Source: an uncultured Gammaproteobacteria bacterium
GTDB lineage: Bacteria; Patescibacteriota; Patescibacteriia; Magasanikbacterales; UBA922
DNA length: 64,000 nt
Reading direction: 5' to 3'
Assembly: GCA_964519725.1 (NCBI GenBank)
Contig: CAZFKS010000003.1
Location: 15,821-79,820 of the forward strand
Of this stretch, positions 12,162-31,806 are shown piece after piece. The position numbers were made by a program, and so were the translations under genes. The notes beneath the pieces are model-generated. The model was not told where the DNA came from. It saw only the letters and a list, made by a program, of their open reading frames with translations, and ran no database searches. Positions within the stretch are counted from its first letter, which is position 1; every line of letters starts with the position of its first letter.

Positions 12162-12163
12162 AA

Positions 12164-13114: not shown

Positions 13115-13115
13115 A

Positions 13116-14039
13116 CTAGTTCTTTTTTACTTCGTAATTTTTAACAACTGCTTTAAGATACAAAGTTGTTTCAGCCTTAAGCTGTGGTTTAAGCAATTTA
13201 ACATTAATGAATTTAAGCGAACTAGTAGTTACGCTGGCCGCACGGTTACCTGTCCCCATCGGGTTGTAACCTTGCAGTACTTCAACCGCATCAGTGTAAC
13301 CATCATTATCTGAATCCCGAGAATTTGGGTCAGTGCCGTATTTTTCTAATTCGACTCGGTCACTAAGACCATCACCATCAGTGTCAAAATTTTCACTACT
13401 GAGACCAAGGTCAGCTTCGGCAGCATCATCAATTCCGTCACGGTCTTTATCTTTGGCTTTGACTGGACGCACAATCCCTGAAGCGTCAGGCGTTCGAGCC
13501 GCAGTCCGGCTCTCAATAAAAGCAGCGACCGTAGTTCTTTGGTTGCGTAAAGCAGTGACCGCATCAGTAACTTTGGTTTTATCAGTTTCATTGGTTATAT
13601 TACCAGCAATATCACGGAGCAAGTCTTCGGCTGCACCAAAGTACACTTCAACACTATCTACCAGATCAGCTTTGACTTCTTCGTTTCCGTCTTGCCAACG
13701 CTCGAGCCGCTTGCTCACTACTTCTGACAAAACAGCGGCCCGTTCCACTAATTTAGAGGCTTTGCTGTCAGTAGTGCTACCAAGCTGGGCACTCGCAATA
13801 ATATTGGCGAGGTGTAAATTATCACTAGCAAACTGTACTCGCAAATCAGTATCAGACTCTTCATTAAAGGTAAACCACAATTGCATCCGTTGATTTAAGT
13901 CGCGAAAAAATAAAGAGACAGCGCCTGGGACATCCTGGCTTGGCGGAGCTGACGTGGTGCGAGTTTGGGCCAAAGTTACGGCTGGCACCAAACTTAACAC
14001 AAGCATTGAGATGGCGACGAGCTTTAAGAGTTGTTTCAT
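13116..14039 (-). CDS. secreted protein with N-terminal helical domain and C-terminal TSP3-like repeats (paralog of neighbours)
   Basis: Signal peptide MKQLLKLVAISMLVLSLVPAVTLAQ; DKDRDGIDD...DTDGDGLSD...DSDNDGYTDAVEVLQGYNPMG repeats. Confidence 0.6.
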   Translation of the reverse strand: MKQLLKLVAISMLVLSLVPAVTLAQTRTTSAPPSQDVPGAVSLFFRDLNQRMQLWFTFNEESDTDLRVQFASDNLHLANIIASAQLGSTTDSKASKLVERAAVLSEVVSKRLERWQDGNEEVKADLVDSVEVYFGAAEDLLRDIAGNITNETDKTKVTDAVTALRNQRTTVAAFIESRTAARTPDASGIVRPVKAKDKDRDGIDDAAEADLGLSSENFDTDGDGLSDRVELEKYGTDPNSRDSDNDGYTDAVEVLQGYNPMGTGNRAASVTTSSLKFINVKLLKPQLKAETTLYLKAVVKNYEVKKN

Positions 14040-14076: not shown

Positions 14077-17000
14077 CTATTGACTACAACTTTCACCTGG
14101 AATGTGATTCAGAGTTGAACAAAAAGTACTCTGCAACATACCATCAGCGTATTCACCAGTGACTGTACCAGAACTATTGGTTTGTGGAACTTTTTTAACT
14201 ACATACACATTCCCCTCTTTGACTAAATTGAATGCGTGCCAATATTGCGCCGCACTTGGATTAGATGTACTTGAACCAGTATTTTTAATACTGAAAGTGT
14301 AGGTTGGACCATAAATTGAATAGAGTGGTACTTGGCCGTCGCGATATTCGTACACCCGAACTTGGAGGTCGCCGTTGCGCTGGGCAGGCAAACCACTGGA
14401 ACCATATTCACCAACCAAGAAAGCAAATGGCTTAGTACTATTGGTTGGAGGTTTAATGGTAAATGCAATGGTTTGCACAGTTTTTGAATTTACTTGCTCA
14501 GAAATTTTTACACCATTGACTTCACGACACAGGTACCGCGCTTTACTACTGTAAGGTAATTTGTTAGCAAAGGTACGGAAACCCAGGGCGTTTGGTGCCC
14601 AGTATCCTGCAATTTGGCTCATGTTATTGCACGCATCAATCGTAGGCGGAACAAATTTATTGACTTCGTTCATCCAAGCTTCGAGGCCATCTTTAATCTC
14701 TTCATCAGAGCAAATACTACCGCCATTGTCAGCTTCTGATCGAGGTTGGCCATAAACATCAACACAAGGATGTTCCTGGTAAGTACTGTCATTGTTAATC
14801 ATATCAACCACGGTTTGCAGATTTGGAATCAGAGTTTGTGCAGTGGCTGCAGTCAAATAATCAATGAGTGAATCTTCTTTTACGGCCGTACTGCCTGTAC
14901 TTGGAGTTTCATCATTGTAAACCAGGCCATTGAATTTTGCGTTCGTGTCAGTCCAACTCATCACCACCCGGAAAGTACTTGGTGGTACTGCCGGTGAGTA
15001 GAAAATTTGTTGTTCAATTTTATCAGCCTGCCCATTTACTGGGAAGACAAAAGTGCTACCATTTAAATCTGAGCCTTTAATTGTACTGGCAGTTGAACCA
15101 TTTTTTACAACTTTAGCCGCATTAAAGACAACTGTGTATTTGTTAGTACACTGATTATTAGTTTGAATGTAGTCATCTATATCGCCAGTTACACCATTAA
15201 CCATGCGGCGCAAATTAAGTGCAGTGTTATTATTAGCATATTTGGTGAGCCCACTTGAAAGAGCCTGTTTTTGTGCATTGGTGCCAGTTTGATTGGCGTC
15301 TAAGCCGCGGAATAAGGAGATGGTGTAACTATCATCGTACAGGTCACCAAAGCTTTGGGTAGCTGGAACAAGTGGATTAATAACCCGAACTTGTGGTAAT
15401 GCACCTTTCTCAAAAAAACCACATTGCAAACATTGCGGTATTACGGTTTTACAACTTGAACAAGAATACGAACCAAATTCTGAACAACTAGCCACAAAGG
15501 TAGATGGAGTGCAATTTGAGTATTTTTTGTTACAAGCAGCATTACAATCAGCGTTACCATTACAGGTTAAGAGACATTCTTGCAGGCCGACTCCACAGTC
15601 AGAAGTATTGCCTGAACCACTCAGTGCGATAATACTACCATCACTCTTAGTTTCACATTTTTCACCTGGATCAAGCGTGCCATTACCACAGTAAACTAAA
15701 TTATCAGTGGTTAAAATCTTACAACCCTTACCACAATAACTGCAGTATTTTTCACCAGTTACTGGTACACATTTTACATCATTATTTTTTCCCGCATCGC
15801 ACTCCTCACCTAACTCTTTTTCCAAAACACCGTTTCCACACTGAGCGGCTGCAGTATCTGGCGGCAAGTTATTCACCCCTCCTGGTACATAAATTCCATT
15901 ACAACTAACCACATCTGGAGCAAGAACTGCTAACACAAAATCACTGATCTTAGAAGATACTCCTAATTTAGAATAATTACTATCACAACCAAGTACAGTT
16001 GAACCAATTTTTACTTCTTTACACGTTAAATTGGCCGCGGCGCATAAACTACGTGGCGTGGCGGCATTACAAGAACTTTCTGATAAAAAGCCGCCGCTAA
16101 TTGGAAGGGTGAAATTAGTAACACCATTTTCAATGGTTGATTTAGCTTCCACCGCTTTGAGACAACTAATTGCTGGCAATTTACAATTGGCCATACATTT
16201 AGCATCGTCTTTGGTATTACCATCATCACACTCCTCACCTTTATCAGTTTGGGTAAGGCCATCACCACAATACGCGCCGTATTCCTGACAATCCCAAGCA
16301 CATGATTTGGCTTGAGCCGCATTATAATTGGCTGTAAACAAACTACCTGGGACTGACGGGTCACAGAATTCAAGAGCTTTACCAGTTGAGTCTTTGTCGA
16401 GTTTACCATTACCACAATAGCCAGCGGCCGCCAGGCCAGTACATCCAGGGGCGCCATCAGTAGGAGCATTACAGTGACCGTAGGTGCCATTTAGAGCACC
16501 ATCATCGCAACTTTCACCACCCTCGACAATCCCATTACCACAAGAACCAGCACTACCACAAGAACCATATTGCCAAGTACAAGAATTGGTACAGGTGCGG
16601 GTAACAATTTGGTTAGCTGGACACTGAACCGTACCATAACCACTTGGCACACAAGTATCAGAGGTAAAGGTAGCTGTCTTAGTTAAAGTTTCATTACAGT
16701 AAAAATTAGGCTTTTCTGAATTGTAGTAGTTGGCAAAATCACCAAGCCCACTTGGGGCTTTGGCTAGGGTTTTAGCGGCCGGATCATACGATGCCAAACC
16801 AAGATTAGTTAAATTATTTCCTGCATCATAGTTTCGATCAACCTGACAATTGGCGTTTGAACTACAAGACACTAATTCAAATTCATCATTACCTTGGCGC
16901 GGCATGGTTCGGTACGGTAGTAAAATAGCTGATCCACGGTTAACAGCGCAGACCCCTTGTTTTCCATCCGCTACGTGTACTTTGGCTGCGGGTGATCCGG

Positions 17001-20000
17001 TAGCAAAGTTTTGTGAATATTGACCACATTGAGCTGCGGTGGTGCAAGATTTAGAACTAGCCCATGATGCACATTTAAACGTAGTGGCATTTTGAATTTC
17101 AGTCACTTGTTCAATTGTTCCTGGCGGTTCACATTGTTCGTTAGCATTTAAAACCCCGTCACCACATTTTTCACTAAATGGATTGTACGCGCCAGAAGCA
17201 CAACCAGCCCAGCGACTAGAGCTAAAGTTAGCCACATTTACTTGGTCTTTAGTAACCTGGTCATTAACCGTGAAGAATTCAAGTGGAGCGTGGAAAATAT
17301 AAGACCGAGTACTTGGGACATATTCATATTCGTAAACACTGGCGTATTTTGGACAGTAATACGTAGTGTTGCCCGCGTTCCAACAGGTTTGCTTGTCATC
17401 AGCCTGACAATTGGTCCACTGGTTAAGTGGATCAGTTGGGAGTCCACCCACTAACGTTTGTAGTGTGCCCCATGATTGACCCCAACGTGATACCGTGTAA
17501 CCCGGTGCAAATGAGCCACCTGCCAAATCACCTTTAAAATCAAATTTATCTTTGTTAGCCGCAAAGTATTCATCAATGTTTTCTTGGGCTGTACGAACAT
17601 CAGCTAGGCGCTTCCAATCACGTTGGAATTTAGTGCGTGCGTTGGAACAAACACCACTGGTTCCAGCCAAAGCCACGCCTTCGGCATCGCGACAATTAAA
17701 ATCAGTCGTACACTGAGTGGCACTAAACAGATTTGGATTAGTGCGAATATTTCCACCAGGTTTTAAACAATAACCATGGTTAGTAACATTAATGTTGAAT
17801 TGCAAATTATCAATGAATTTCTTAAACACAGCCCGACTTTCATCACTCGCATTTGGATTAATACTGAACAAATAAATATTACTGTAAACTTTATCATCAG
17901 TTGGTGAGCTACTGGCGCCCGGAGCTAAATTCAAGGCTTGAACATAGTAATTATTATTGTCAGTCAGGGCGCGGTAACCACCAACGGTTGTAGCTTGCAT
18001 TGAGCCAGTGGTACCAAATTTCTTTTCATACCATTCGACGAGTGGTTCTTCACTCGAGAAAACTTGAATCCCAATCGCGTCCTCATTTTTATCATTGAAG
18101 AATACTAATTTGCGGAGCGTATCAGTTGAGCCAGGCACACCACCCAGTGATAAAGCATCTTTTAACAGCGGTAAATCATCACTGGCATCACCAGCTTTAC
18201 CGCTGTCAGCACAATAACCAGTAGAAAAATTATACTCAGTGTCTTTGTATGGGAAATTAGCTTCACTTGGCCATGGACGTTCACAGAAGAATGCAGTCAA
18301 TTGGAACGTGCCACTAAAAATTTTACCCTTTTGATTATTTTCTGTGCTCGCATCTTCAGTCACAATTGCTTGCGCTACACCAGTTACTTCACCAGCTACA
18401 TTTTTAGCAGTTACATTTAATTTATTAGTTGGTGTTTGCGGTGCAAAATCAAAGACTGGATTGTTTTGTGGTAACCAAGCCCAATCCCAGCGGTAACCCG
18501 CGACTGGGACAATTTTACCGGTCGTGCCCGCGTCATCAGTAAAGCCAAGCGCAGTAAAGGTGGCTGAAGTATTTGGTTTTTTGAATAAATAGCTTGTTGG
18601 GTCAACGACTACACCAGATAATTTACAAATTTTCGCGCCAGTTTTGAAGAACCAGGAATCATTACGACTGTTATTTTCGCTATCTGGTTTTGAGCCAAGT
18701 GGAACACCGCGCACATCAGTAATACCACCGCGATCACCACGGAGTAGCACACCGTACACAGTGGTTGGTTCAAGCGCCTGACTAATTGCCAGTGAAGCTA
18801 CGGTTGCTTTGGTACTATCTGGTTTGGTAATGGTGTGTGACTCAGTGGTCACTGGCATGCCAACTGAACACCAGGTTTTAATATTTTTAAATTCTGACAA
18901 ATCAGTCACAGTGGTAGCGGTTGCTGAATTTCCCAGCAAATCATGGAACCAAGCCACAATACGCTGCCACAGTCTGGCCCAGAACCCAAGATCTGGAGTT
19001 TCACCAGCCACAGTTTTTTTAACGTAACTAGTGAAGTCTTGGCCATTCACAGGATCAGCGGTACAATCAAAATTTGACTCTGTAAAGCCACGTACCAAGA
19101 ACATGTTTTGGGAAATGGTGTCAGAGTTTAATTCTTTGCTAAATTCAACTTCAATATTGGTGTTGCGACACACACCCGCACTAAAGAAACCAGCGCCATC
19201 AGCTGGGCTTTCTGCCACCCGTTTTGGTCGCAATTGACAACATGATTGACCATCGACACCTTTGCTATTATCATAATTATTTGGACAATCATTGTACGCA
19301 TTACCCTCAACATCTGCGTCAATTTTGGACAAACTAATTGGTTGATCAAATTCTTGGTAACCACATTGCAGGCGATAATCAGCCGTACTGCTCACAGTTT
19401 TATTTTCGGTCACCGTGTTCACGTGGATATCAGTTTGCTGGTAGGTTTGACCAGCCACTAAACTACCCTGACCAACTGCTTCCACTAATTGAGTTGGGCC
19501 AGCCGTATTACTGCTATCACCACTTGGTAATTCACAACTTTTGTTTTCACCAATACCAATCGTAGTGTCACCACAAATTGATGGCGTGCTGTAACTAGTT
19601 TTTGAACCTTGAAGCGTACACTTATTAGTACAACCTAAGTCACCAGCCTGGCATGGACGTTTATCAGCTGGTAAACCGCAAGCATCAATAAACAAACACT
19701 GCGAGCTACAAACACCAGCTCCAGACGCATTTGGGCCACTAATTTCACAATCTTCAGCCTGCTCAATAATACCATTACCACAGACACTCACGCTGTTCAA
19801 ACAGGCTGGATTAGTACCAAAATTAGCTTGATTATCTTTACACCAGAAACTCGCGACTTTGGTGCCAGCATGCAAACATTGATTAGTACAACCTGCTTTT
19901 GTAGCTGGATCATTTGGATCACACAGTTCTTGGCCAGCTGTTACAAAAGAGTCGCCACAATTAGCCACACCAACGGTGGTATTACCTGTCGTTGAACCTT

Positions 20001-23000
20001 TGAGTAAACATTTACTTGAACAAATTGGATCATCAGTTTTTACTTTGCCATCTTTATTACCCGGATCACATTGTTCACCCACCTCAGCTTCCACTGTGCC
20101 ATTTCCACAAACATTGGCACCATTGTTTTGGTCATTAAACGCATTAGTATTACCTGGTCTCAAACAAGTCAACGAACAAGACACACCTGGTTTTTCACCA
20201 GTGGCCGCAATATCACAGTCTTCACCGGCGTCAATTTTACCATTACCACAAATTGGTAGATCAGCTGCGCCAGTTGCGGCTGTAATCGTACTCCCTTTTT
20301 TGAGACATGAATTAGTACAGAAACTAGGAATGTTACTAAATGAAGCTGGTTTTATTTTTGATATTTTAGCCACGGCCAGGCTCGCCACACTCCAATTATA
20401 TTGATAATCCCATTTGTTAAGCGCTTGACCAACTTTGCTACACGCATTTGGCGCACTGTATGGTGTAACCGTAAATTGATCACGCTGACCAATTTCAGTG
20501 GCACTGAAACTAACTGGGGTCACTACCAGTGAACTAACTTTACATGGTGTGCCATCATTTTTAGTTTTGAAAATCCACTCAGTTTTTGGCAGAGCCTTAC
20601 CTAGTTTTTTTGGATTCGCCCCCAGTAAGGCTTTAATGCTTGAGCCGGTACCATTGAGTGAAACTTTGTAATACGTATTTTTATCAAGAACCGAACCAGG
20701 TTTTAAATTAGCGCGCAAACTAATCGCAGTTGAAGTCTGTTCATCAATTGCATACTGTGAAATTTCATCAGCTTGAGCACAAGCGACACCGTCATTACAT
20801 TTGTAAATCTTGAACCCATCCGCAAAAGTGGCCGTATCCATTTGACGATTAAAATCAGCACGCAAACTAGTGTTAACACAAGACTCAACACAATTTGGTT
20901 CATAATACGTCACTTCTGGATCAGCCAAATCAATGGTGAGTTTACTGGTTGGGGTAAATTTAGAACTACTTTTAACAGTTAAATCAATCACATCATTGCG
21001 CAGGCGAATTGCAAAATACGTTGGACCTGGATCACTAGCTGGAACTTTAGTTGTGACCATCGCGGCCGCATTGTCAGTGGCCAATGGTACTCCAGCTGGT
21101 AAATTAGTTTCTGCCTTATTACTTAAATTATTTAAATCAATCCAGGTTAATTTTTTACTATTTTGATCCCAAGTAAGTGCGATATTGTAAATTCCACTAT
21201 TGCTAAGTGACGGAGTAAAGCAGTGTTGTAAATCAAGTGTAACTGCCCGATAAGTGGTGAAGCAAACTACTGTACCAATAACATTTACCTTATAACCAAT
21301 GCGCGGTTGGGTAATATTCCGCCGTTCAAGCAAGTTAGTGTTAGTTAAACTTGGGGATTTGGAATATTTAAATTGGAGGGTAAATGAACTTTGCAAAGAA
21401 ACGAGCGAACTACCCGCAGTGTTGTAGGCTTTGCCCATTGGTGATACATAACCCGTCGCTGGAACAATAATGTCACTGGTGGCCAGGACATCAGTACCAC
21501 CAATCGTATCTAGTGATGAACCCCCAGCTGACGGATTACCATTATTTACATTTGAAATAGTGGCTTCAGCTTTAATAGTTACAGTGTCTGGCGCAGTGTG
21601 AGCACGCGCAGCCACAATTCCACGACTATTTAGGTATGGTAAAGTCGTTGTCGTTGCTGCTTTGACCGATTTAAATGCGCTCGCTTTATCACTGTCAGTC
21701 CCAGTAATGCCTGGTGCCCACACCCATGGGTACTGATCAACATTTAACACTGAACAATCCTGATTACCTTTTCCCCAAATGTAAAAATAATTTGGAAATG
21801 GTGGAATTTTTTCTGGTGGATTTTGCGTTGGCAAATACAAATCAGCTGAGTTAAATGGAAAACGTGGGTCCTGAATAATACCAAGTTGACGCGTCGTATA
21901 TTCAGCTGGATTAATCCCCGCATCAGTGAGCACACATTCCGCACTATTAGTTTTAAAAGTAAAACAATAAGCCGTTCCATTTCCACACGGACGAGTGGCC
22001 ACAATTGGGGCTGACACAGTGGTGTCAACTCCTAAAAATTTAGTGGCTTTTTTTGATGTTAATCCAGAGCCAATTTCCACCTGGTACCAAGTGTTGGCAG
22101 CCAGAGTTGGCGGGGCCTGTTTAATAATTAGAGTTTTACCTGCACTTTGGTAAGACAAACCAGTGGTCACTGGATCTTTTTTCGCTGCACAATCGATTTG
22201 GCCGTCTTTGGTGCCACAAGCAAAAACTTTAATCGTATTGTTATTAATGGTCGCTTCATCCATGTCTTCAGAAAACCGCACCGCAATACTACTATTTACA
22301 CAGGCAGTGGAATTTACGGCCAAACCAGTCCCCTGACTCCGTGGGGTTGGTGATGGGAACACACTACCATCAGCTTTACATTCTTCGACTACTTTTGGCG
22401 GATAGGTCAAAATACCAGTGGTAAACCGCCACAAATAGGCTGAGTCGCGTGCTTCACCCTGACAAGATTGACTATTAGCTTTCCACTGACCAGCATCTGG
22501 ACCACTTGGACAACAGTGAAAACCTGGTAATGGTGATTTACTGTTTACACAACTATCAACCGTGTATGTAACGCCATTACTAAGTAAATTAGTACCAAAA
22601 GATTTAAATTTAATTGGTCCAGTACTCATTGACCGACCAGACTGATTACTGACTGGTAAAGTGGTGACAATTTTACTACTGGTAATGTCTTTAATTACAT
22701 TTAAACCATCAAACCGATCGCGAGTTGAGTCTAACCAGGTAGCGTAATTATTTGGATCAGCGCCACTTTGCCAAAAATACAGGGTTGGATTAGTTGTTAC
22801 AAAATTTAAACCATAAATTGTGAGTCCACTGCTGCCAGATGGTAATGGTGCTGGACCAGCATTTGGGGCTAAGCGACAAATACCTGGGCGTGGTTCACCA
22901 TTCACAACCTCAATCGAATCTTGTGCGCTACTGGTAAAACCACTGGAATTTTTAATAATAACTACTGCTTTTGAGCCATTAAACGAACCTGGAATTTGAC

Positions 23001-25365
23001 CAATAATTTGTGTATCACCCCAGGTGTCCCCACACTGAGTTGGGAGTGAATCAATATTTAAAAGTTTACAGTCTGGATCAGGAATACTTCCAAGGCAGGC
23101 TGTAGTTGGATTAAGTGGGCGACCGGCTGGGAATAACCAGACTTGGCCAGTCTCATTACCAAACCCACGACCATTAATTGTAACTAAACTTAATTTAGTG
23201 GTACTGGTTGGATCAATACTGCTAATACTTGGGACAATTTGCGCTTTATCAGCTGACAAAATATTAAATTTAACGCCGTTACTTGATTGTCCACCAGCAC
23301 TTACGTGCACCGCATAATTACCAGCTTTCAAATTACTTGGCACACGTGAATTGATCGCGAGATCAGTCCAGTTATTACCTGAAGTTTCAGCTGGAAAACC
23401 ACCACTCAGCGCACCAGTGATTGGATTTTTATTAGCCCCAAACACTAAGCGATCCGTGTCACCTTTGGTCCCAAAACCAGAACCTTTCGCAGTCACTGGC
23501 ACATCTGGTAAACCAGCTTCATTACCAGCTGGGAGCGTAACTTTTTGTCCGCCCAACGTCACTTCCGTGTCAGTAGTGACCCCAACTTTACACAAACCTG
23601 GACGCTGGGTCGTATTAATTACAAAGAGCCCATCAGTGTTTGGTTTTGGTCCAAAATCATTGATAGTCGTGTCAGTTTTATTATCAGCCGTAACGATTTT
23701 AATTGGGGTTTCCACACCCGTGGAAAAATCCGCACTTGGACCAGGCACAGCTACTACCACCCAGTATGGACTCCAGGATGCGCCGGTTCCACAATTGACT
23801 ACAGTCGCCTCCACCCACTCATTGTCAGTGGTGAATTTACCATCATCATTACGATCGACACCAAAGTACACTTTACCTTGTTTAGTGCCAAAATTTTTAC
23901 CCGCAATCGTAATCCAATTACCTGGCGCACCATTACCTGGATCAAGATTAGTAATGGCTGGGGCTGGTGAGCATTTATTATCAACACACTGGTAGCCACT
24001 GGAACAATCTGAGTCTTCACTACACTGATCCCCATCACCACCACCACAAGAACCACCACTGTCTGGACCAGTTTCATCACCATCTTGAATATCATTATCA
24101 CAGTGCGTAGCGACTACTCTAAAATTCACGCTACTGGTCTGCACATTACCATCAATATCAAAAGCAGTTAAAGTAACCAAATAATTCTGACCGGCTTTAA
24201 ATTTCCCGCTTAGTTTAGTCGAGTAATCAACAGTGAACGGCTGAGAAGATCCTTCCTGTCCAGTTGGGGCACTATAACCAGTCAGTATTGTATTTCCTCC
24301 CACTTCACTTATGACTATTTTTACCAAACCATTACCACCATAACTCACGTTTTTTCGATCATTTATGATTGCTGAAATAGTAAAGTTAGAATTCAAAGGA
24401 AAATTAAGGTCAGTGCCAGACAGACCATTTAAACTAATTTGTTCCACAGCAGGTTTGGTGGCATCATTAATATCCTCATCAACAGTAAAGTACCCTGTAT
24501 TTCCATAAGTAACCTCACCCACTGAGTATTTAGTTTTGAGACTTTTTCCAGAAGTATCTTTCAGATCAGGATTAACTGTCACTGTTATATAATTACCACT
24601 ATTAACTCTAAATGGCGTGGCAACACCATTTTCCACGTAGTTAATTTCCAAAACCCGGTTTCCCTCAACAAGAGAAATTTTAATTGGCAAAGGATTATTG
24701 TTAATGACCAGACTAGCCGCCTTACTAATATCATTTTCATCACTAAGCGGCCGACTAAATAGAACACGGACCGTGACATTCTTCATGCCCGTTAAAATCT
24801 GATTTTCAGAGTCACTACCTGGTGTAATCGCTTTGACATAAAACTCTCGCTCCTGACAAATTGATGCTCCTGGGTTGTCTTGGCAAAACCGATCACAATC
24901 ATCAGCATTATAATTATCACCTTCACAACTACCTGGGTCTGGCAGATCACTAGAGCCATTATCACTGGCCACATCAGAACCCCCATTAATGGCACTGTTT
25001 AATTGGTTAAACACAAATTGGACAATGGCCCAAGCCGAAAAAATAATCACGAGACCAATAACTGCGTTCACAATGTATTTTTTACCTTCGGCCACCCGAT
25101 CTTCATTACCACCAGCGGTCATGTACAAAAAGCCACCGTACAAAATCAGTCCAACCGTAATAATTCCAAGTAAACCAAGCGCAATATTAATAAACCGGGC
25201 GGCAATTTCGCGGATGTCACCTCCACCCAAGGTCAAAGCATTATCAACTGGCTTTAAACCAAAAGTGTCACCTTCATTTTGCGCGCTTACCTGCGTGGCA
25301 ATACCCAAAAACACCAAACCAGCCATGAGTAGGCCGGCAAAAAATAGTTTGGTGCGTTGCTTCAT
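14077..25365 (-). CDS. giant (3,762 aa) surface protein: signal peptide + T4SS-pilin-like (TrbC/VirB2-like) two-helix N-terminal module, then long extracellular region with many Cys-rich CGNGxxExxEECD repeats
   Basis: Single uninterrupted ORF. N-terminus LGGGDIREIAARFINIALGLLGIITVGLILYGGFLYMTAGGNEDRVAEGKKYIVNAVIGLVIIFSAWAIVQFVF matches the pilin-like module common on CPR surface proteins. Repeats CGNGKIDAGEDCD, CGNGTVEAEVGEQCDPGN, CGNGIVEGGESCDDG, CGDGLTQTDKGEECDDGN. Confidence 0.8.
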   Translation of the reverse strand: MKQRTKLFFAGLLMAGLVFLGIATQVSAQNEGDTFGLKPVDNALTLGGGDIREIAARFINIALGLLGIITVGLILYGGFLYMTAGGNEDRVAEGKKYIVNAVIGLVIIFSAWAIVQFVFNQLNSAINGGSDVASDNGSSDLPDPGSCEGDNYNADDCDRFCQDNPGASICQEREFYVKAITPGSDSENQILTGMKNVTVRVLFSRPLSDENDISKAASLVINNNPLPIKISLVEGNRVLEINYVENGVATPFRVNSGNYITVTVNPDLKDTSGKSLKTKYSVGEVTYGNTGYFTVDEDINDATKPAVEQISLNGLSGTDLNFPLNSNFTISAIINDRKNVSYGGNGLVKIVISEVGGNTILTGYSAPTGQEGSSQPFTVDYSTKLSGKFKAGQNYLVTLTAFDIDGNVQTSSVNFRVVATHCDNDIQDGDETGPDSGGSCGGGDGDQCSEDSDCSSGYQCVDNKCSPAPAITNLDPGNGAPGNWITIAGKNFGTKQGKVYFGVDRNDDGKFTTDNEWVEATVVNCGTGASWSPYWVVVAVPGPSADFSTGVETPIKIVTADNKTDTTINDFGPKPNTDGLFVINTTQRPGLCKVGVTTDTEVTLGGQKVTLPAGNEAGLPDVPVTAKGSGFGTKGDTDRLVFGANKNPITGALSGGFPAETSGNNWTDLAINSRVPSNLKAGNYAVHVSAGGQSSNGVKFNILSADKAQIVPSISSIDPTSTTKLSLVTINGRGFGNETGQVWLFPAGRPLNPTTACLGSIPDPDCKLLNIDSLPTQCGDTWGDTQIIGQIPGSFNGSKAVVIIKNSSGFTSSAQDSIEVVNGEPRPGICRLAPNAGPAPLPSGSSGLTIYGLNFVTTNPTLYFWQSGADPNNYATWLDSTRDRFDGLNVIKDITSSKIVTTLPVSNQSGRSMSTGPIKFKSFGTNLLSNGVTYTVDSCVNSKSPLPGFHCCPSGPDAGQWKANSQSCQGEARDSAYLWRFTTGILTYPPKVVEECKADGSVFPSPTPRSQGTGLAVNSTACVNSSIAVRFSEDMDEATINNNTIKVFACGTKDGQIDCAAKKDPVTTGLSYQSAGKTLIIKQAPPTLAANTWYQVEIGSGLTSKKATKFLGVDTTVSAPIVATRPCGNGTAYCFTFKTNSAECVLTDAGINPAEYTTRQLGIIQDPRFPFNSADLYLPTQNPPEKIPPFPNYFYIWGKGNQDCSVLNVDQYPWVWAPGITGTDSDKASAFKSVKAATTTTLPYLNSRGIVAARAHTAPDTVTIKAEATISNVNNGNPSAGGSSLDTIGGTDVLATSDIIVPATGYVSPMGKAYNTAGSSLVSLQSSFTLQFKYSKSPSLTNTNLLERRNITQPRIGYKVNVIGTVVCFTTYRAVTLDLQHCFTPSLSNSGIYNIALTWDQNSKKLTWIDLNNLSNKAETNLPAGVPLATDNAAAMVTTKVPASDPGPTYFAIRLRNDVIDLTVKSSSKFTPTSKLTIDLADPEVTYYEPNCVESCVNTSLRADFNRQMDTATFADGFKIYKCNDGVACAQADEISQYAIDEQTSTAISLRANLKPGSVLDKNTYYKVSLNGTGSSIKALLGANPKKLGKALPKTEWIFKTKNDGTPCKVSSLVVTPVSFSATEIGQRDQFTVTPYSAPNACSKVGQALNKWDYQYNWSVASLAVAKISKIKPASFSNIPSFCTNSCLKKGSTITAATGAADLPICGNGKIDAGEDCDIAATGEKPGVSCSLTCLRPGNTNAFNDQNNGANVCGNGTVEAEVGEQCDPGNKDGKVKTDDPICSSKCLLKGSTTGNTTVGVANCGDSFVTAGQELCDPNDPATKAGCTNQCLHAGTKVASFWCKDNQANFGTNPACLNSVSVCGNGIIEQAEDCEISGPNASGAGVCSSQCLFIDACGLPADKRPCQAGDLGCTNKCTLQGSKTSYSTPSICGDTTIGIGENKSCELPSGDSSNTAGPTQLVEAVGQGSLVAGQTYQQTDIHVNTVTENKTVSSTADYRLQCGYQEFDQPISLSKIDADVEGNAYNDCPNNYDNSKGVDGQSCCQLRPKRVAESPADGAGFFSAGVCRNTNIEVEFSKELNSDTISQNMFLVRGFTESNFDCTADPVNGQDFTSYVKKTVAGETPDLGFWARLWQRIVAWFHDLLGNSATATTVTDLSEFKNIKTWCSVGMPVTTESHTITKPDSTKATVASLAISQALEPTTVYGVLLRGDRGGITDVRGVPLGSKPDSENNSRNDSWFFKTGAKICKLSGVVVDPTSYLFKKPNTSATFTALGFTDDAGTTGKIVPVAGYRWDWAWLPQNNPVFDFAPQTPTNKLNVTAKNVAGEVTGVAQAIVTEDASTENNQKGKIFSGTFQLTAFFCERPWPSEANFPYKDTEYNFSTGYCADSGKAGDASDDLPLLKDALSLGGVPGSTDTLRKLVFFNDKNEDAIGIQVFSSEEPLVEWYEKKFGTTGSMQATTVGGYRALTDNNNYYVQALNLAPGASSSPTDDKVYSNIYLFSINPNASDESRAVFKKFIDNLQFNINVTNHGYCLKPGGNIRTNPNLFSATQCTTDFNCRDAEGVALAGTSGVCSNARTKFQRDWKRLADVRTAQENIDEYFAANKDKFDFKGDLAGGSFAPGYTVSRWGQSWGTLQTLVGGLPTDPLNQWTNCQADDKQTCWNAGNTTYYCPKYASVYEYEYVPSTRSYIFHAPLEFFTVNDQVTKDQVNVANFSSSRWAGCASGAYNPFSEKCGDGVLNANEQCEPPGTIEQVTEIQNATTFKCASWASSKSCTTAAQCGQYSQNFATGSPAAKVHVADGKQGVCAVNRGSAILLPYRTMPRQGNDEFELVSCSSNANCQVDRNYDAGNNLTNLGLASYDPAAKTLAKAPSGLGDFANYYNSEKPNFYCNETLTKTATFTSDTCVPSGYGTVQCPANQIVTRTCTNSCTWQYGSCGSAGSCGNGIVEGGESCDDGALNGTYGHCNAPTDGAPGCTGLAAAGYCGNGKLDKDSTGKALEFCDPSVPGSLFTANYNAAQAKSCAWDCQEYGAYCGDGLTQTDKGEECDDGNTKDDAKCMANCKLPAISCLKAVEAKSTIENGVTNFTLPISGGFLSESSCNAATPRSLCAAANLTCKEVKIGSTVLGCDSNYSKLGVSSKISDFVLAVLAPDVVSCNGIYVPGGVNNLPPDTAAAQCGNGVLEKELGEECDAGKNNDVKCVPVTGEKYCSYCGKGCKILTTDNLVYCGNGTLDPGEKCETKSDGSIIALSGSGNTSDCGVGLQECLLTCNGNADCNAACNKKYSNCTPSTFVASCSEFGSYSCSSCKTVIPQCLQCGFFEKGALPQVRVINPLVPATQSFGDLYDDSYTISLFRGLDANQTGTNAQKQALSSGLTKYANNNTALNLRRMVNGVTGDIDDYIQTNNQCTNKYTVVFNAAKVVKNGSTASTIKGSDLNGSTFVFPVNGQADKIEQQIFYSPAVPPSTFRVVMSWTDTNAKFNGLVYNDETPSTGSTAVKEDSLIDYLTAATAQTLIPNLQTVVDMINNDSTYQEHPCVDVYGQPRSEADNGGSICSDEEIKDGLEAWMNEVNKFVPPTIDACNNMSQIAGYWAPNALGFRTFANKLPYSSKARYLCREVNGVKISEQVNSKTVQTIAFTIKPPTNSTKPFAFLVGEYGSSGLPAQRNGDLQVRVYEYRDGQVPLYSIYGPTYTFSIKNTGSSTSNPSAAQYWHAFNLVKEGNVYVVKKVPQTNSSGTVTGEYADGMLQSTFCSTLNHIPGESCSQ

Positions 25366-25368
25366 AGA

Positions 25369-27597
25369 TTATTGTAAGTCTGGTGGTGGACTCCACGGAC
25401 TGGCCGCTTTGACTTTGATTAAACAGGCCGCTAAATCTTTTTGAATTTGTTCGCCTGGGACTTGTCCAAAAATACAGGCCGTGTCACTAATCGCATCAAA
25501 GGTCACAGGCGCACAATTTTGTGATTGGGCTGGGCTTCCATTTACCCCCTCAGTATAGCTACAGATTGGCGAGGTATTTTTTTCACCTGGAATTGGCACT
25601 GGACCCCGACCTGGATACAAACAATTTTGATTTTCAGCTTTAACTGTGCTTGAAACAAAGGGGAAATAGTAAAGGTCAAGGTTTCCAGTCCCAAAGTCGC
25701 GGGGATGCTGGGCCGTGGCAACCGTATTTTCACCACCCTCTGCTGGTGCCATTTCAAAGTAGTATGGAAAATCTTCTAACTGGATGCCGTCCCGACCAGT
25801 CACATTGGCTGGATATTCAATTACACCACTGCCTTTTGGGATAGTACTATACCACATTGGCTTGCTGAAATAAATTTTTACCAGGTCCTTACCACCCACA
25901 CCTTCGCCCTCTAAATTTGGGGTCACTTGTTTAATGTAGGGCACAGTATTATCAATTGCATTTTTTACTTTAAAACCCCAGAAAAAGTTATCTGGTACTT
26001 TTTCATTTTCGGCTACAGTTTTAAAATTGCCAGGCAATTGCGGTTTGTGTTTAGTCGTTTGGCCGGGAATTGTCGCGAGCAGACCATCAGCTTTATTATC
26101 TGGACCATTATCAAGCGCATTACCCGCCATATCATTCACCCCGGTAAATGGTTGGGCCACAAATGAATTTTCGGCTGCATTTAACAGCGCGGCAGTGCGC
26201 ACCAAACCATTGTAATCAGCGGTACAATTTAAATCAGTTGGCGAACAATTACTTACTGGTAAGCAGTACATCTTTTCACCGCAACTGTTTTGCCCACACT
26301 CTTCAGCCGAAATAAATTCAAGGGTGGAATAACCATTGGAAATTCGCCACTCGCCTTTTACATTTGGGTTACCAAAAATAATATTCGTGAACGCACTATT
26401 ATCACCTAGTACGCCTTGAGTCACCGTTGGGTCAACCGGTTCATTAAAATTAATTTGTACAATAATATTACGTGCAATCGTTTGACCAGCTTTTGGCCGA
26501 GTCGATACAACGTGCGGTGGCGTTAAATCAAGCGTGGTATTGGTTTCAAAATTCCAGGCATAAAATTTACTAATAAATTGTTGTGGGAAAATGTCTGTAC
26601 CATCAAGCCGCTTGATACCAACATTTTTATTTTCACCACCAATTAATTTAACCGTGTTCCAAACATTTTTTAAATCACTACCCAGCGGTTCAAGTGGCCT
26701 AAAGGTAAAGACCGTGGCCTTTTTTTCTTGATCATATACCGCGAGTGCCGCCATTTTAGCGTAAGTTTTGGTAGTACTAGTAGCCTGTTCTTTTGGAAAT
26801 ACTTGCACCGCATCAGTGCGCACCTGATCACACTCAGTTTCCCAATTAATGGCTTGATCGTTATTTAAATCAACACAATCACCATAATATTCCAAATCTT
26901 TGCCGTCTTTATCTTTAAGACAAGCATCTGGCGCAATTTTGACTGGCTCGATGAAACCCATTTTTGACCAACAAGTTTGGTTAGTATTAGTAATTAAACT
27001 GCTTGGTAAAATTGGTTCAGCAAAAGTAACGGCAATTTTTGTGTTGCGCGCCACATTAACTTGGTTTGGACGTGGGTAATGATCTTTAATAATTGACCCA
27101 AGACCACCGGTTCCAACGTAGGAAGCAAAAAATGGTTGTGGCGCATCACTGTCAGTGTTATTAAATCCACCGCCAAACGTGTCCGAGAGTGATTTGAAAA
27201 TAAAACGCACAATTGCAAAGGTGGACATGATAATCACTAGACCAACCACAGCGTTAGTGAGTACACGCTTACCTTGCGCCACTTTTTCTTCATTACCCGC
27301 TGAGGTCATGATTAAAAAGCCCCCGTACAAAACCAAACCAAAGGCAATAATTCCCAGTAAGCCCAAAATTACATTAATAATTCGGCCCGCAATTTCCCGA
27401 ATATCGCCACCACCTAAATTAATCGTGTTTTGGACTGGCTGCAGTCCCAGCGCATCGGTTTGCGCCAGTACAGGGTTTGGGATGGCACTAAAAACGAAAA
27501 TAAAAAAAACAAAGACTAGAGCGGTTCTGACGAACTGTCTAGTCTTGTTAGAAGTAACCAGTGAGAGAATCCAAGGAAGCATGAACCTGGGACTCAA
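25369..27597 (-). CDS. 742-aa paralog: signal peptide + T4SS-pilin-like N-terminal module + extracellular domain
   Basis: N-terminal region LGGGDIREIAGRIINVILGLLGIIAFGLVLYGGFLIMTSAGNEEKVAQGKRVLTNAVVGLVIIMSTFAIVRFIF is near-identical in layout to the giant protein N-terminus. Start 4 nt after giant gene stop. Confidence 0.75.
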   Translation of the reverse strand: MSPRFMLPWILSLVTSNKTRQFVRTALVFVFFIFVFSAIPNPVLAQTDALGLQPVQNTINLGGGDIREIAGRIINVILGLLGIIAFGLVLYGGFLIMTSAGNEEKVAQGKRVLTNAVVGLVIIMSTFAIVRFIFKSLSDTFGGGFNNTDSDAPQPFFASYVGTGGLGSIIKDHYPRPNQVNVARNTKIAVTFAEPILPSSLITNTNQTCWSKMGFIEPVKIAPDACLKDKDGKDLEYYGDCVDLNNDQAINWETECDQVRTDAVQVFPKEQATSTTKTYAKMAALAVYDQEKKATVFTFRPLEPLGSDLKNVWNTVKLIGGENKNVGIKRLDGTDIFPQQFISKFYAWNFETNTTLDLTPPHVVSTRPKAGQTIARNIIVQINFNEPVDPTVTQGVLGDNSAFTNIIFGNPNVKGEWRISNGYSTLEFISAEECGQNSCGEKMYCLPVSNCSPTDLNCTADYNGLVRTAALLNAAENSFVAQPFTGVNDMAGNALDNGPDNKADGLLATIPGQTTKHKPQLPGNFKTVAENEKVPDNFFWGFKVKNAIDNTVPYIKQVTPNLEGEGVGGKDLVKIYFSKPMWYSTIPKGSGVIEYPANVTGRDGIQLEDFPYYFEMAPAEGGENTVATAQHPRDFGTGNLDLYYFPFVSSTVKAENQNCLYPGRGPVPIPGEKNTSPICSYTEGVNGSPAQSQNCAPVTFDAISDTACIFGQVPGEQIQKDLAACLIKVKAASPWSPPPDLQ

Positions 27598-27606
27598 AAA
27601 TAAATT

Positions 27607-28053
27607 TTAGCCGCCGAGCTGTTTCAAAATCTCAGTTCTGACGCGACTACCATCAGCCTTGCCTTTGACTCGGCCCATTACAGCGCCGGTGGCTTTACCA
27701 CTGTCTTTGGCAGTCAGTGGTCCAAGCGTTGCCAGCACTTCTTTAACAATGCTTGCAAGCTCTTCATCACTTAACTGCTCAGGCAAAAAGCTGGTCAGTA
27801 ATTTTATTTCGGTGTTGGTTTTATCAATCAAATCTTGCCGACCAGCTTTAGTAAAATCACCTAAAGCATCGGACAATTGTTTGACCTGTCTGGCCACAAT
27901 CGCTTCTGCGTCTGTGCCAGTTACGGTTTTACCGTGATTGATTTCTTCATTTTTTATGGCTGCCAAAACATTCTGCAAACTGTCTAGAGTCACACTGTCA
28001 TGACTTTTCCGAGCGGTTTCTCTAGCAGCTTTCAGGGCTTCAACAATTTCCAT
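27607..28053 (-). CDS. yqeY: GatB/YqeY domain protein
   Basis: 148 aa; typical YqeY family sequence (LKAARETARKS...ILKQLGG). Conserved yqeY-rpsU neighbourhood. Confidence 0.8.
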   Translation of the reverse strand: MEIVEALKAARETARKSHDSVTLDSLQNVLAAIKNEEINHGKTVTGTDAEAIVARQVKQLSDALGDFTKAGRQDLIDKTNTEIKLLTSFLPEQLSDEELASIVKEVLATLGPLTAKDSGKATGAVMGRVKGKADGSRVRTEILKQLGG

Positions 28054-28055
28054 AG

Positions 28056-28319
28056 CTATTTACTATTGCGTTTTTGGTACTCAGCCAATTCTTTTTTCGA
28101 CATTTTACCATTATTGCGGCGATATTCCATCCGGCCTTTGGTCTCAATGCGACTTACGGCTGATTTACGGCGAGCGTTTTTAGTTGGCTTACCTTTGAAG
28201 TATTGGCGTTTCTTGCTTTCAAGAATCCGACCAGAACTTTGCCAGCCTTTTTTGACCCGGCGCATGTAACCTTCAAACTGCTCGTTTTTGTGACGTTTAA
28301 TTTCTGACACACTATTCAC
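28056..28319 (-). CDS. rpsU: 30S ribosomal protein S21 (bS21)
   Basis: EIKRHKNEQFEGYMRRVKKG...KKRQYFKGKPTKNARRKSAV aligns to the S21 pattern; adjacent to yqeY as in many bacteria. Confidence 0.75.
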   Translation of the reverse strand: MNSVSEIKRHKNEQFEGYMRRVKKGWQSSGRILESKKRQYFKGKPTKNARRKSAVSRIETKGRMEYRRNNGKMSKKELAEYQKRNSK

Positions 28320-28379
28320 CTCCTGAGGTGATTAATAATTAATGGCTGTATCTTAACTAAAATTAGCCTAAATGTCAAA

Positions 28380-29816
28380 TTAATTTTCTAGAATTTTGAG
28401 GATAGCTTGGCGGAGTTTTTTCTGGTCTACAATTTCCTGGTTACCAGACTCCATATTCCGAATCAAAACCGTACCATCTTGGACCTCTTTTTGACCCAAA
28501 ATTAAGGTGTGAGTGGTGCCGTACTTGTTGGCCAGTTCCATTTGGGTCTTGAGTGAGGCTTTGGCCAAGTTGTGACGGACCATGATTCCACCCTGGCGCA
28601 GTTCTTCAATTAATTTAAGCACACGACGACGAGCCTGTTCACCAAGTTGAGCAAAGAAAATCACTGGCTTAGTACTTGGAGCTGGGGCTTCCGCCATCTT
28701 TTGGGCGCGTTCAACCGCACTGGCCACGCGTTCGAGACCAATTGCAAACCCAGCCGCTGGAGTTGGTTGACCACCTAATTGCTCAATGAGTAAATCATAA
28801 CGACCACCACCACCCAGAGCACTTTGGGCACTTTCATCAGTACCCTCAGTGTAATATTCAAAGACTGTGTGGGTGTAATAATCAAGTCCACGCACCAAAG
28901 TTGGTGTCAAAACGTATGGAATACTTAATTCATCAAGATATTCAAGTACACTCATGAAAAAAGCTTTTGAACTTTCAGCGAGCCAGTCTACAATTTGTGG
29001 GGCCTCAGCCACCACACCCGCGCAACTTTCTACTTTACAATCTAAAACGCGAAGTGGATTTTTTAAGAGACGCTTTTTACAATCTTCACAAAGATAAGCA
29101 CGCTTACCACGCAGGTAGCCAACCAATTCAACCAAATATTGTTCCCGATCTTGTGGCGTACCAAGTGAGTTAATACGTACGGTTACATTTAAACCAAGCT
29201 CACGTAGGTAATTGTAACCAACCGCAATTAATTCTGCGTCAATCACTGGCGCTGACTCACCAATTGTTTCACAATCAAACTGGTGAAATTCACGATAACG
29301 ACCAGCTTGGGGGCGATCATAACGGAAAAGTGGACCAATACTCCACATTTTTACTGGCTGTGATTGGGTGTGTAAACCGTGCATGACAAACGCGCGCGCT
29401 ACTGAGGCAGTCATTTCTGGACGAAGCGCTAATTTACCACCATCACGATCTTCAAATACATACATTTCTTTATCAACTACATCAGTACCACGACCAACCG
29501 CGCGTACAAATAGTGACGCCATTTCTACGGTTGGCGTTTCAAAATAGTGAAAGTCGTAAGCAGTCGCAATGTTGGCGGCATTTTGCCACAACCGCAACCA
29601 CTCATCACCTTGTGGTGGCAAAATATCTTTCATGCCGCGCACCAAAGCCAATTGACTAGCCGTTTTTTTATTATCTTCAGCCGGTGCAGCGACCGCTTTT
29701 ACTGGGGCAACTTTTTTTACTGGCGCTGGTTTAGCTACTGCTTTAGCCGCCACTTTCATTGGCTTGGCTGGGGCTTTTGGCGCTAGTTTCTTTTTAACTT
29801 CTTTTTTTGGTGACAT
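28380..29816 (-). CDS. hisS: histidyl-tRNA synthetase with N-terminal Lys/Ala/Pro-rich extension
   Basis: Class II aaRS / HisRS motifs (RGMKDILP, RPEMTASVARA, GGGRYD). Start taken at ATG 29816 (MSPKKEVKKKLAPKAPAKP...). Confidence 0.9.
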   Translation of the reverse strand: MSPKKEVKKKLAPKAPAKPMKVAAKAVAKPAPVKKVAPVKAVAAPAEDNKKTASQLALVRGMKDILPPQGDEWLRLWQNAANIATAYDFHYFETPTVEMASLFVRAVGRGTDVVDKEMYVFEDRDGGKLALRPEMTASVARAFVMHGLHTQSQPVKMWSIGPLFRYDRPQAGRYREFHQFDCETIGESAPVIDAELIAVGYNYLRELGLNVTVRINSLGTPQDREQYLVELVGYLRGKRAYLCEDCKKRLLKNPLRVLDCKVESCAGVVAEAPQIVDWLAESSKAFFMSVLEYLDELSIPYVLTPTLVRGLDYYTHTVFEYYTEGTDESAQSALGGGGRYDLLIEQLGGQPTPAAGFAIGLERVASAVERAQKMAEAPAPSTKPVIFFAQLGEQARRRVLKLIEELRQGGIMVRHNLAKASLKTQMELANKYGTTHTLILGQKEVQDGTVLIRNMESGNQEIVDQKKLRQAILKILEN

Positions 29817-29821
29817 ACAAA

Positions 29822-30427
29822 TTAGTAGGTAGGATGGGAAAAGGCAGTCAAACGTGACACTGGCCAACCGCGTAACCAGACGCGACCAACAATGTCAGCT
29901 TTATCAATCGCGCCAAAGCGGCGGGAATCAAAACTAGCATCACGATTATCCCCCATCACAAAATATTGATTTTGCCCAAGGGTGATGGTAATTGTGCCTG
30001 GGGTTTCTTCGGTTAAATAACTTTCGGTTAATACCATACCTTGCGGATTGGCGTCATTGTAGACAATTACTTTATTGCCATCCACTTTTACGCGCTCGCC
30101 AGGGAGGCCAATCACGCGTTTCAAGAAAAAATCATCAGTTGGACGGTAATGAAACACAATTACTTCACCCCGTTCTGGCTCGCGGAAACGGTAAGATAAT
30201 TCATCAATAATTAAATAATCCCGTTCTTCAAAATTTGGTTCCATGGACTGGCCTTTCACGTAAAACGGCTTGAACAAAAAGTAACGCACCAGACCAATCG
30301 TGAGACCAGCCAAAACCGCAATTTTAATAAGTTCAAACAGGACACTGCCTGCCTTACTCAAAAAACTCCGCTTTGGTTGATGGAGCTCCTCTAAGACCTC
30401 GGCATCACTAGTTTTTTCTTCTTCCAT
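29822..30427 (-). CDS. lepB: signal peptidase I
   Basis: GQSMEPNF (Ser box), RVIGLPGERV, GDNRDASFDSRRFG boxes; 201 aa. Confidence 0.85.
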   Translation of the reverse strand: MEEEKTSDAEVLEELHQPKRSFLSKAGSVLFELIKIAVLAGLTIGLVRYFLFKPFYVKGQSMEPNFEERDYLIIDELSYRFREPERGEVIVFHYRPTDDFFLKRVIGLPGERVKVDGNKVIVYNDANPQGMVLTESYLTEETPGTITITLGQNQYFVMGDNRDASFDSRRFGAIDKADIVGRVWLRGWPVSRLTAFSHPTY

Positions 30428-31754: not shown

Positions 31755-31806
31755 AAAAATCCCCCCTGATCCGTCAGTTGACGGACGAAGGGGGATTTTT
31801 TATTTT
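31755..31806 (+). terminator. strong rho-independent terminator (nested hairpin ATCCCCC...CCGTC-AGTT-GACGG...GGGGGAT followed by T-run)
   Basis: Long GC stem directly after the lipoprotein stop, followed by TTTTTTATTTT. The low-GC block ends here. Confidence 0.7.

Follow-up and report, generated by a model that had tools for sequence, protein, structure and literature searches.

Two adjacent genes in a stretch of 64,000 nucleotides from contig CAZFKS010000003.1 of assembly GCA_964519725.1 (the whole of this stretch is called the window here) each encode a complete pilin of the T4SS (type IV secretion system) family of Patescibacteria to which a large domain is appended. We consider it moderately probable that the two proteins, A and B, are modular VirB2-type pilins of a Magasanikbacteria-like bacterium in the CPR (Candidate Phyla Radiation), class ABY1, and that their heads co-assemble and display adhesin-like payloads. 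The genes are as follows, with lengths in amino acids (aa) and open reading frame abbreviated to ORF.

14077-25365, minus strand: gene A, giant modular pilin, 3,762 aa, ATG start, uninterrupted ORF.
25369-27582, minus strand: gene B, modular pilin, 737 aa from an ATG, uninterrupted ORF.

An initial annotation of this DNA had reported two adjacent ORFs of 3,762 and 742 aa. Both are present on the minus strand at those coordinates, the longer form of B arising from an alternative TTG start at 27597 (25369-27597). B is more likely 737 aa long, because a database protein that is 100% identical to it (P0121, 737 aa) begins at the internal ATG at window position 27582, and residues of B are numbered here in the 737-aa form. 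Gene A directly follows gene B: the TAA stop codon of B is separated by 3 nucleotides (tct) from the ATG of A. With so short a gap the two are almost certainly co-transcribed and form a translationally coupled pair.

The N-terminal regions of the two proteins contain the following parts, in which TM1 and TM2 are the first and second transmembrane (TM) helices and AF2 is AlphaFold2.

25282-25365, minus strand: A signal peptide, aa 1-28, with basic n-region KQRTK, hydrophobic at 4-28, predicted cleavage between VSA and QNE.
24991-25281, minus strand: A pilin module, aa 29-125, with TM1 at 53-84, a TAGGNEDR loop and TM2 at 96-122 (PF18895; collinear with free pilins).
27463-27582, minus strand: B signal peptide, aa 1-40, hydrophobic at 15-42, predicted cleavage between VLA and QTD.
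27178-27462, minus strand: B pilin module, aa 41-135, with exposed N-terminus, helix 61-92, loop 93-97 and helix 98-135 (PF18895, AF2).

The initial annotation had described the heads as a near-identical block of about 110 aa. That the block is shared is borne out by BLASTP (E 5e-36; residues 31-144 of A and 46-155 of B), while near-identity is not: 65 of 114 positions are identical (57%, with 72% positives), and the sequences are the same only in stretches such as LGGGDIREIA. Outside this N-terminal block nothing aligns significantly between A and B in the BLASTP comparison. At the DNA level the heads are about 60% identical and no long identical tract was found, and a six-frame phmmer search of the window gave no third copy of the head. 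The Pfam family PF18895 (T4SS_pilin) matches both proteins above its gathering threshold of 26.6 bits, with 43.8 bits for A and 36.5 bits for B, or 49.7 and 39.6 bits for the heads by themselves. The classical TrbC/VirB2 family, PF04956, matches the A head over essentially its full length (profile positions 2-97 of 98; 21.7 bits, E 2.4e-4) and B at 11.4 bits, both below its threshold of 27.9. The assignment of the heads to a TrbC/VirB2-like T4SS-pilin module, also made initially, thus holds, above threshold for the first family and below it for the second. An NCBIfam model of a pilin-like protein of the Mycoplasma integrative and conjugative element scores 35.8 bits (A) and 32.3 bits (B), short of its cut-off of 40, and a head profile searched against PDB sequences, solved pilins included, gave no match even at E 10.

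The heads are collinear with 12 free Patescibacteria pilins (111-201 aa) from the signal peptide through the end of helix 2. The common order is signal peptide, G-L motif, helix 1 (LGLLGI), GGNE loop and helix 2 (IGLxII), and the loop is conserved as T-A/S-G-G-N-E. In this alignment 12 columns are invariant, the free pilins are 33-52% identical to head A, and the invariant positions of heads and free pilins fall in G..LG, GG...MT.GGNE and IGL.II. In both A and B the payload begins exactly where the free pilins end, a few residues past helix 2, and a Gly/Ser/Asp linker joins the two. Hydropathy analysis gave three hydrophobic segments per protein, all N-terminal, and none beyond residue 133 in either. 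An AF2 model of B, computed from an alignment of 57 orthologues (mean predicted local distance difference test score, pLDDT, 86.7; predicted template modelling score, pTM, 0.77), begins with a signal-peptide helix at 3-33 and continues with a mature N-terminus that is disordered, a hairpin of two helices and a loop at 61-135 (pLDDT 85-91) and a linker at 136-148 with pLDDT below 50. A40 and Q41, which flank the predicted cleavage site, are nearly invariant among the 57 orthologues. The heads are consequently not of the kind that the initial annotation had named as its refuting case, an ordinary signal peptide with a single TM segment; hydropathy and the AF2 model of B give a signal peptide and two long helices separated by a 5-residue loop.

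In both proteins, conservation is also highest in the hairpin. For B, the mean frequency of the top residue is 0.73 in the hairpin, 0.53 in the payload and 0.33 in the linker. In A, the 50-aa window at 51-100 reaches 0.73, the maximum for the whole protein, and payload windows do not exceed 0.60. The residues invariant in the A and B heads are those invariant in free pilins. Moreover, the identity between A and B heads averages 0.563 in the same genome and 0.451 between genomes; it is higher in the same genome for 64 of 69 genomes, and for 25 A heads the B head of the same genome is the best match of all 69. The same-genome excess lies mainly in the N-terminus, which is exposed, and in helix 1, on its outer half. 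The synteny described below implies that the duplication predates the species, so that an A head should be equally diverged from the B head of its own genome and from those of other genomes. Recent gene conversion was rejected as the source of the similarity, since no long identical DNA tract is present: the longest identical run is 23 nucleotides, and the control maximum is 26. As judged from these alignments, A and B heads co-evolve within genomes. The conservation of the hairpin, the retention of free-pilin residues and the co-variation together argue that the head is more than an inert anchor.

The payloads comprise the following regions, of which several consist of immunoglobulin (Ig)-like domains.

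25372-27132, minus strand: B extracellular payload, aa 151-737, a chain of Ig-like (Big_5-type) domains with conserved Cys (AF2, Foldseek).
14080-24924, minus strand: A extracellular payload, aa 148-3762, without further hydrophobic segment (hydropathy).
19666-20250, minus strand: A Cys-rich repeat block 1, aa ~1706-1900, CGNG..E.CD units (regular expression; weak match to TIGR02232, myxo_disulf_rpt).
17161-18660, minus strand: A conserved central region, aa 2236-2735, Ig-like, then an alpha/beta domain and a long helix (AF2, pLDDT 75, pTM 0.73).
15646-17166, minus strand: A Cys-rich repeat block 2, aa ~2734-3240 (regular expression, conservation).

The payload of B is modeled as all-beta, with pLDDT mostly above 90. 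It contains Pfam Big_5 matches in 2 stretches; the protein has 14 Cys, and some Cys are invariant among orthologues. Its best PDB matches by Foldseek are the surface layer (S-layer) protein SbsC (4uic; E 1e-5, TM-score 0.13), the Ig domains of LdtMt2, titin and protocadherins; the TM-scores are low, as would be expected of flexible multi-domain rods. For A the initial annotation had listed more than 3,600 aa of Cys-rich repeats and Ig-like segments, and this description is confirmed by 138 Cys (3.7%), 10 repeats of the type CGNG/CGDG..E.C[DE] in two blocks (aa 1706-1874 and 2734-3238), Big_5 in 4 stretches (best at aa 1020-1106) and TIG in 2 (best at aa 712-813). The Cys and G/E/D positions of the repeats are at least 90% conserved among 34 orthologues, and one orthologue, P0267, has a DUF4215 match in the region equivalent to repeat block 2. 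A sequence search of A against the PDB returned TIG-like matches only. The conserved central region has structural neighbours in the PDB for its Ig-like part only (Foldseek), and no enzymatic or toxin domain was found in the payloads of A and B. With Cys-rich, Ig-like, TIG and Big_5 segments and structural matches to S-layer and cadherin proteins, the payloads are extracellular in character.

The pair is widespread. The B family has at least 120 orthologues (38-100% identity, 660-763 aa, with one partial sequence of 549 aa), nearly all with PF18895 and PF13205 (Big_5), and those that are named, among the matches listed, are called Candidatus Magasanikbacteria. Four relatives at 40-60% identity all have the gene order LepB - HisRS - S21-like - YqeY - B - giant, with pilin-headed giants of 3,395-4,281 aa. 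Scanning of species-representative genomes gave 78 loci, from Magasanik-, Uhr- and Komeilibacteria and from many genomes labelled 'Gammaproteobacteria'. ORF analysis of synteny covered 80 related loci, with B present in 79. In 71 of the 79, the ORF right after B is also pilin-headed, and the other 8 are contig ends or, in one case, a frameshift. Upstream of B are LepB (68 loci), HisRS (69), S21 (72) and YqeY (61). The complete giants in these loci have 2,097-3,461 aa, 28 more extend past 3,300 aa at the locus edge, and a free pilin of 133-171 aa lies between B and A in 4-5 loci. About 70 species-level genomes of class ABY1 (Magasanik-, Uhr- and Komeilibacteria) share the syntenic order LepB-HisRS-S21-YqeY-B-A. 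In the window the pair lies among these neighbors:

27607-30427, minus strand: upstream genes YqeY, S21-like, HisRS and signal peptidase I (LepB) (Pfam).
11106-14039, minus strand: three secreted or membrane protein genes downstream of A with bacterial thrombospondin type-3 (TSP3; calcium-binding) repeats (PF18884).

The three TSP3-repeat genes encode one secreted protein and two single-pass membrane proteins, all with Thr/Pro-rich linkers. A TSP3-repeat gene follows the giant, as in the window, in 6 of the 8 related loci whose downstream region could be assessed, and these proteins are possible partners of the pair. Housekeeping genes (YbeY, DAGK, FtsA, FtsZ) also lie downstream of the pair in the window.

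Giant A itself also stands for a true orthologous family: the alignments of 35 cluster representatives (3,059-5,289 aa) cover 63-100% of A, with 28-50% identity. A homologue search with the first 1,200 aa of A gave 18 matches only. When the head was searched exhaustively with phmmer against 1.84 billion cluster representatives, 33,784 of them matched (E<=1e-3). Among the best 150, the head is N-terminal in 35 giants of at least 3,000 aa (to 5,289), in 33 B-like proteins of 600-999 aa and in 15 proteins of other lengths; 21 more are free pilins, and 46 are single polypeptides with 2-8 tandem pilin modules, whose rank is inflated by summed module scores. Single-module proteins above 250 aa thus make up 83 of the best 150, and long forms are common. 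An indication that fusions are rare, from a word-indexed head search that had returned only pilins of 108-201 aa, was discarded as an index artefact: higher-scoring B orthologues had been missed, and the exhaustive search shows giants and B-like proteins. The payload domains differ among relatives and include LamG, pentraxin, VWA and LVIVD. The original proposal that one head serves very different payloads agrees with both this variety and the spread of lengths.

The multi-module proteins (poly-pilins) include P0257 (606 aa, 7 modules), P0259 (820 aa, 8 modules), P0274, P0004 and P0005. They would be polytopic membrane proteins, because only the first module has a signal peptide. In six relatives (L017, L018, L019, L021, L023 and L033) the giant gene is split into an ORF of about 2,400-2,700 aa and a following ORF that continues the homology to the C-terminal part of A; a frameshift or an assembly error could explain this, or the payload may really be split. 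Many clear ABY1 contigs (L005, L013, L017, L018, L021, L023, L024 and others; P0174) bear record titles like 'uncultured Gammaproteobacteria bacterium', 'Candidatus Udaeobacter sp.' or 'Kapabacteria', and the taxonomic labels of such public records appear to be wrong. In Magasanikbacteria RIFCSPHIGHO2_01_FULL_41_23 (L004, identical to L002, 101-2332), a diversity-generating retroelement (bAvd and reverse transcriptase) lies directly upstream of S21-YqeY-B-A. It was considered as a diversifier of A or B and rejected; its 135-nucleotide repeats (278-412 and 810-944, 87% identity) place the variable repeat in a separate 107-aa ORF.

Two alternative explanations are improbable. According to the first, the architecture is an artefact, either of mis-assembled or fused ORFs or of a head that is no more than an ordinary signal peptide and one TM segment. 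The window is apparently chimeric at about 31.8 kb, which makes assembly errors conceivable, but about 70 independent genomes and 35 giant cluster representatives show this architecture and gene order again, the ORFs are uninterrupted, and the heads have three hydrophobic segments and a pilin profile above threshold. We regard this explanation as refuted. According to the second, A and B are pro-proteins: the linker past helix 2 would be cut, the payload would be released or passed to the wall, and the head, acting as an export leader, would become a free pilin. RP4 TrbC is known to undergo C-terminal processing by a LepB-like peptidase, which such a route would resemble. The variable, Gly/Ser/Asp-rich linker with its low pLDDT, the end of free pilins exactly at the head/payload junction, and the signal peptidase I gene conserved four genes upstream (68 of 79 loci) would all suit cleavage. 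Yet the linker is without a conserved cleavage motif (conservation 0.33), the LepB gene is probably the housekeeping copy in a housekeeping operon, and pilin production at the price of one 3,600-aa payload for each pilin would be costly. Processing of this kind seems improbable.

VirB2-like pilins are reported from 1,948 assemblies, as are arrays of 2-11 genes, and a PrgB-type adhesin was not detected in Patescibacteria (Quinonero-Coronel et al. 2025, PMC12102498). A pilin array and the T4SS are essential in the cultivated Patescibacterium Southlakia (Wang et al. 2023, PMC10633639), and a 2025 review treats pili as merely a 'potential' of the Patescibacteria T4SS systems. Table S1 of PMC12102498 lists VirB4 as present for all six of the pair-bearing Magasanikbacteria genomes in it, which are all of class ABY1. 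Among the assemblies that the table gives as lacking VirB4 is RIFOXYC2_FULL_39_8, probably a Magasanikbacteria genome. Arrays of six tandem pilin genes (L082, 1718-4184; L083, 7383-12510; L084, 8976-11723) contain the free pilins closest to the two heads, and no VirB4-type gene was found within 8-10 kb of these arrays. Ahead of the array region in L083 and L084 come an SBP_bac_1 solute-binding protein gene and then another pilin gene.

In solved VirB2-class pili the loop between the helices lines the lumen. Both termini of these pilins reportedly face outward in the pilus. A C-terminal payload is topologically compatible with incorporation, since the loop would be lumenal and the termini outward.

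Several observations weigh against modular pilins that co-assemble and display adhesins. The neighbors of the pair are housekeeping genes, and neither the window nor any of the 79 related loci has a T4SS component within about 10 kb of it. We know of no demonstration that VirB2-like proteins of Patescibacteria form pili. The outer surface per subunit, calculated from the geometry of the T-pilus, is about 700 square angstroms, on which a payload of 600-3,600 aa for every subunit is hard to accommodate; this argues that A and B would at best be minor or terminal subunits and against a homopolymer. The same-genome excess in head identity drops from 0.113 to 0.082 once similar residues are merged, and shared amino-acid or codon bias could partly contribute to it. 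The conserved central domain of A has no informative structural match (Foldseek against the PDB). The adhesin role, finally, is a candidate function whose basis is the types of domain in the payloads.

The same setting would suit a passive anchor, in which the hairpin has been co-opted as a mere two-helix membrane anchor and the payloads form a constitutive S-layer-like coat or a wall-spanning layer that has nothing to do with a T4SS or with pili. Housekeeping genes on both sides (LepB, HisRS, S21 and YqeY; YbeY, DAGK, FtsA and FtsZ), the lack of T4SS genes nearby in the window and the 79 loci, and the lack of VirB4 within 10 kb of the closest free pilin arrays are consistent with such a role, as are the match of the B payload to SbsC, its best structural match, and the nature of Big_5 as an S-layer-type Ig domain. 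Inert anchors, however, are not normally the best-conserved part of a surface protein, and here the hairpin is, with the invariant loop and helix residues of free pilins; the A and B heads co-vary within genomes; and no S-layer homology (SLH) or other wall-binding domain was found in Pfam and NCBIfam scans. We regard a passive coat as possible, if rather unlikely. Modular pilins with co-assembling heads are the explanation that we prefer, and it should be separated from the stronger claim that the heads enter a true T4SS-built pilus through a VirB4-type machine, which is doubtful. That the heads are assembly-competent and are built, together with free pilins, by a VirB4-type machine into a fibre carrying the B stalk and the A fibril on its outside is slightly more doubtful still.

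If A and B are modular pilins, they would be exported by the Sec pathway and cleaved by LepB after VSA (A) or VLA (B). The hairpin would insert with its N-terminus out, its loop in the cytoplasm and its C-terminus, with the payload, outside; this topology is inferred from the results on the head and fits the Cys-rich, Ig-like payloads. Helix 2 would then serve as the signal-anchor for translocation of 600-3,600 aa of payload, which would fold and oxidise outside the cell. The pilin modules may make the same sequence-specific contacts as free pilins do, and may bind to each other and probably also to free pilins. The result could be a heteromeric base or a short fibre, with the B stalk and the giant A fibril projecting from it as adhesins or surface fibrils toward host cells or substrates. 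In a true pilus the payloads would decorate the outside, given the outward-facing termini of VirB2-class pilins.

Among known systems, the Patescibacteria VirB2-like pilins of PF18895 include the heads as full-length members. Tandem arrays of divergent pilin genes, as in that family, have their counterpart in adjacent B and A: in 71 of 79 loci B is followed by another ORF with a pilin head, and some of the arrays also hold a free pilin. The described pilins, in contrast, are small (about 110-170 aa) and often near virB4, whereas A and B carry a C-terminal payload of 3,600 or 600 aa, far exceed the size of stand-alone members (3,762 and 737 aa), and lie in a housekeeping setting, as a pair that is orthologously conserved across the class. 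Long pilin fusions are not mentioned in PMC10633639 or PMC12102498. With classical VirB2/TrbC/TraA proteins (PF04956) the pair has in common a long cleavable signal peptide, a two-helix hairpin and a short loop. It differs in matching the family below its gathering score and solved pilins not at all by sequence, and in lying outside the T4SS clusters (VirB3/B4/B5/B6) that encode the classical proteins. The classical proteins also bear no large added domain, and they may undergo cyclisation or C-terminal trimming.

The closest functional analogy is PilB of Streptococcus sanguinis (PMC8179133), a modular type IV pilin of an unrelated class with the same design, a functional adhesive module grafted onto the C-terminus of a pilin, so that the filament is the adhesin. 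Type IV pilins have a class III signal peptide (cleaved between G and F/M in the motif G-F/M-xxxE) and a single N-terminal helix, unlike A and B with their Sec-type cleavage sites (VSA before Q, VLA before Q) and hairpin, and the payloads of A and B are up to about 10 times larger than those of PilB-type modular pilins. The presumed role, contact with a target cell, is like that of T4SS adhesins, namely the VirB5/TraC tip proteins and PrgB of Enterococcus. VirB5 is a separate protein, though, and PrgB is anchored to the wall by LPXTG, whereas A and B have no C-terminal hydrophobic sorting segment; their C-termini, ...HIPGESCSQ and ...SPWSPPPDLQ, are without an LPXTG-type anchor. With the S-layer proteins SbsA and SbsC of Bacillales the pair has a chain of Ig-like (Big_5) domains in common, the payload of B being a rod of such domains. 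In place of an SLH domain or one that binds secondary cell wall polymer (neither was found in Pfam and NCBIfam scans), A and B have the N-terminal pilin hairpin, and the TM-score is low (0.13).

Other parts of the window deserve brief mention. An 883-aa ORF at 2693-5344, minus strand, beside pyruvate kinase, matches all three domains of phosphoenolpyruvate (PEP)-utilising enzymes and pyruvate phosphate dikinase (PPDK) at sub-threshold scores only, and may be a highly divergent PPDK- or PEP-synthase-like enzyme. At 31,760-31,900, just past a hairpin and a T-run, GC content rises from about 0.44 to about 0.61 within 100-200 bp. The right part of the window (32,000-64,000) contains the following genes.

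36685-39018, minus strand: C-type-lectin protein.
39239-45127, minus strand: Cys-rich protein of 1,962 aa with MopE/Dicty repeats.
49335-54551, minus strand: Type ISP restriction-modification enzyme.
59433-60605, minus strand: protein with a Cap4-nuclease domain.

The right half looks like DNA of a different organism, either in a chimeric contig or in two joined records, with the junction at about 31.8 kb.

Patescibacteria account for a large part of bacterial diversity and live mostly in attachment to other cells. In the single system tested, the T4SS and its VirB2-like pilins are essential, while a pilus made of these pilins has not been seen and a T4SS adhesin has not been found. The A/B pair is a strong candidate for a role in attachment to other cells, one that is class-wide and testable. 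The combination of head and payload is visible in databases, and a description of it was not found in the searchable literature. New here are the class-wide synteny, the hairpin as the best-conserved part, the apparent co-evolution of A and B heads, and the placement of the pair away from T4SS genes although VirB4 is present elsewhere in the genomes. Such genes are at present annotated as 'hypothetical', 'Ig-like domain-containing' or 'pilin', which can be corrected, and small pilins, giant fusions and multi-module poly-pilins are lumped together when 'VirB2 homologues' are counted in CPR genomes. The LepB-HisRS-S21-YqeY-B-A locus can also be used as a marker of class ABY1. The pair would show that very large modules can be grafted onto the VirB2 pilin fold, a principle of which the unrelated type IV pilins have so far been the sole known example. 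If a VirB4-built fibre does carry the two payloads, A and B would be the first modular pilins in the T4SS (VirB2) class, and poly-pilins with 2-8 modules would be pre-assembled fibre segments. The pair would then supply the missing T4SS adhesin of Patescibacteria, and a whole CPR class would have a conjugative-type pilus as its organelle of host attachment.

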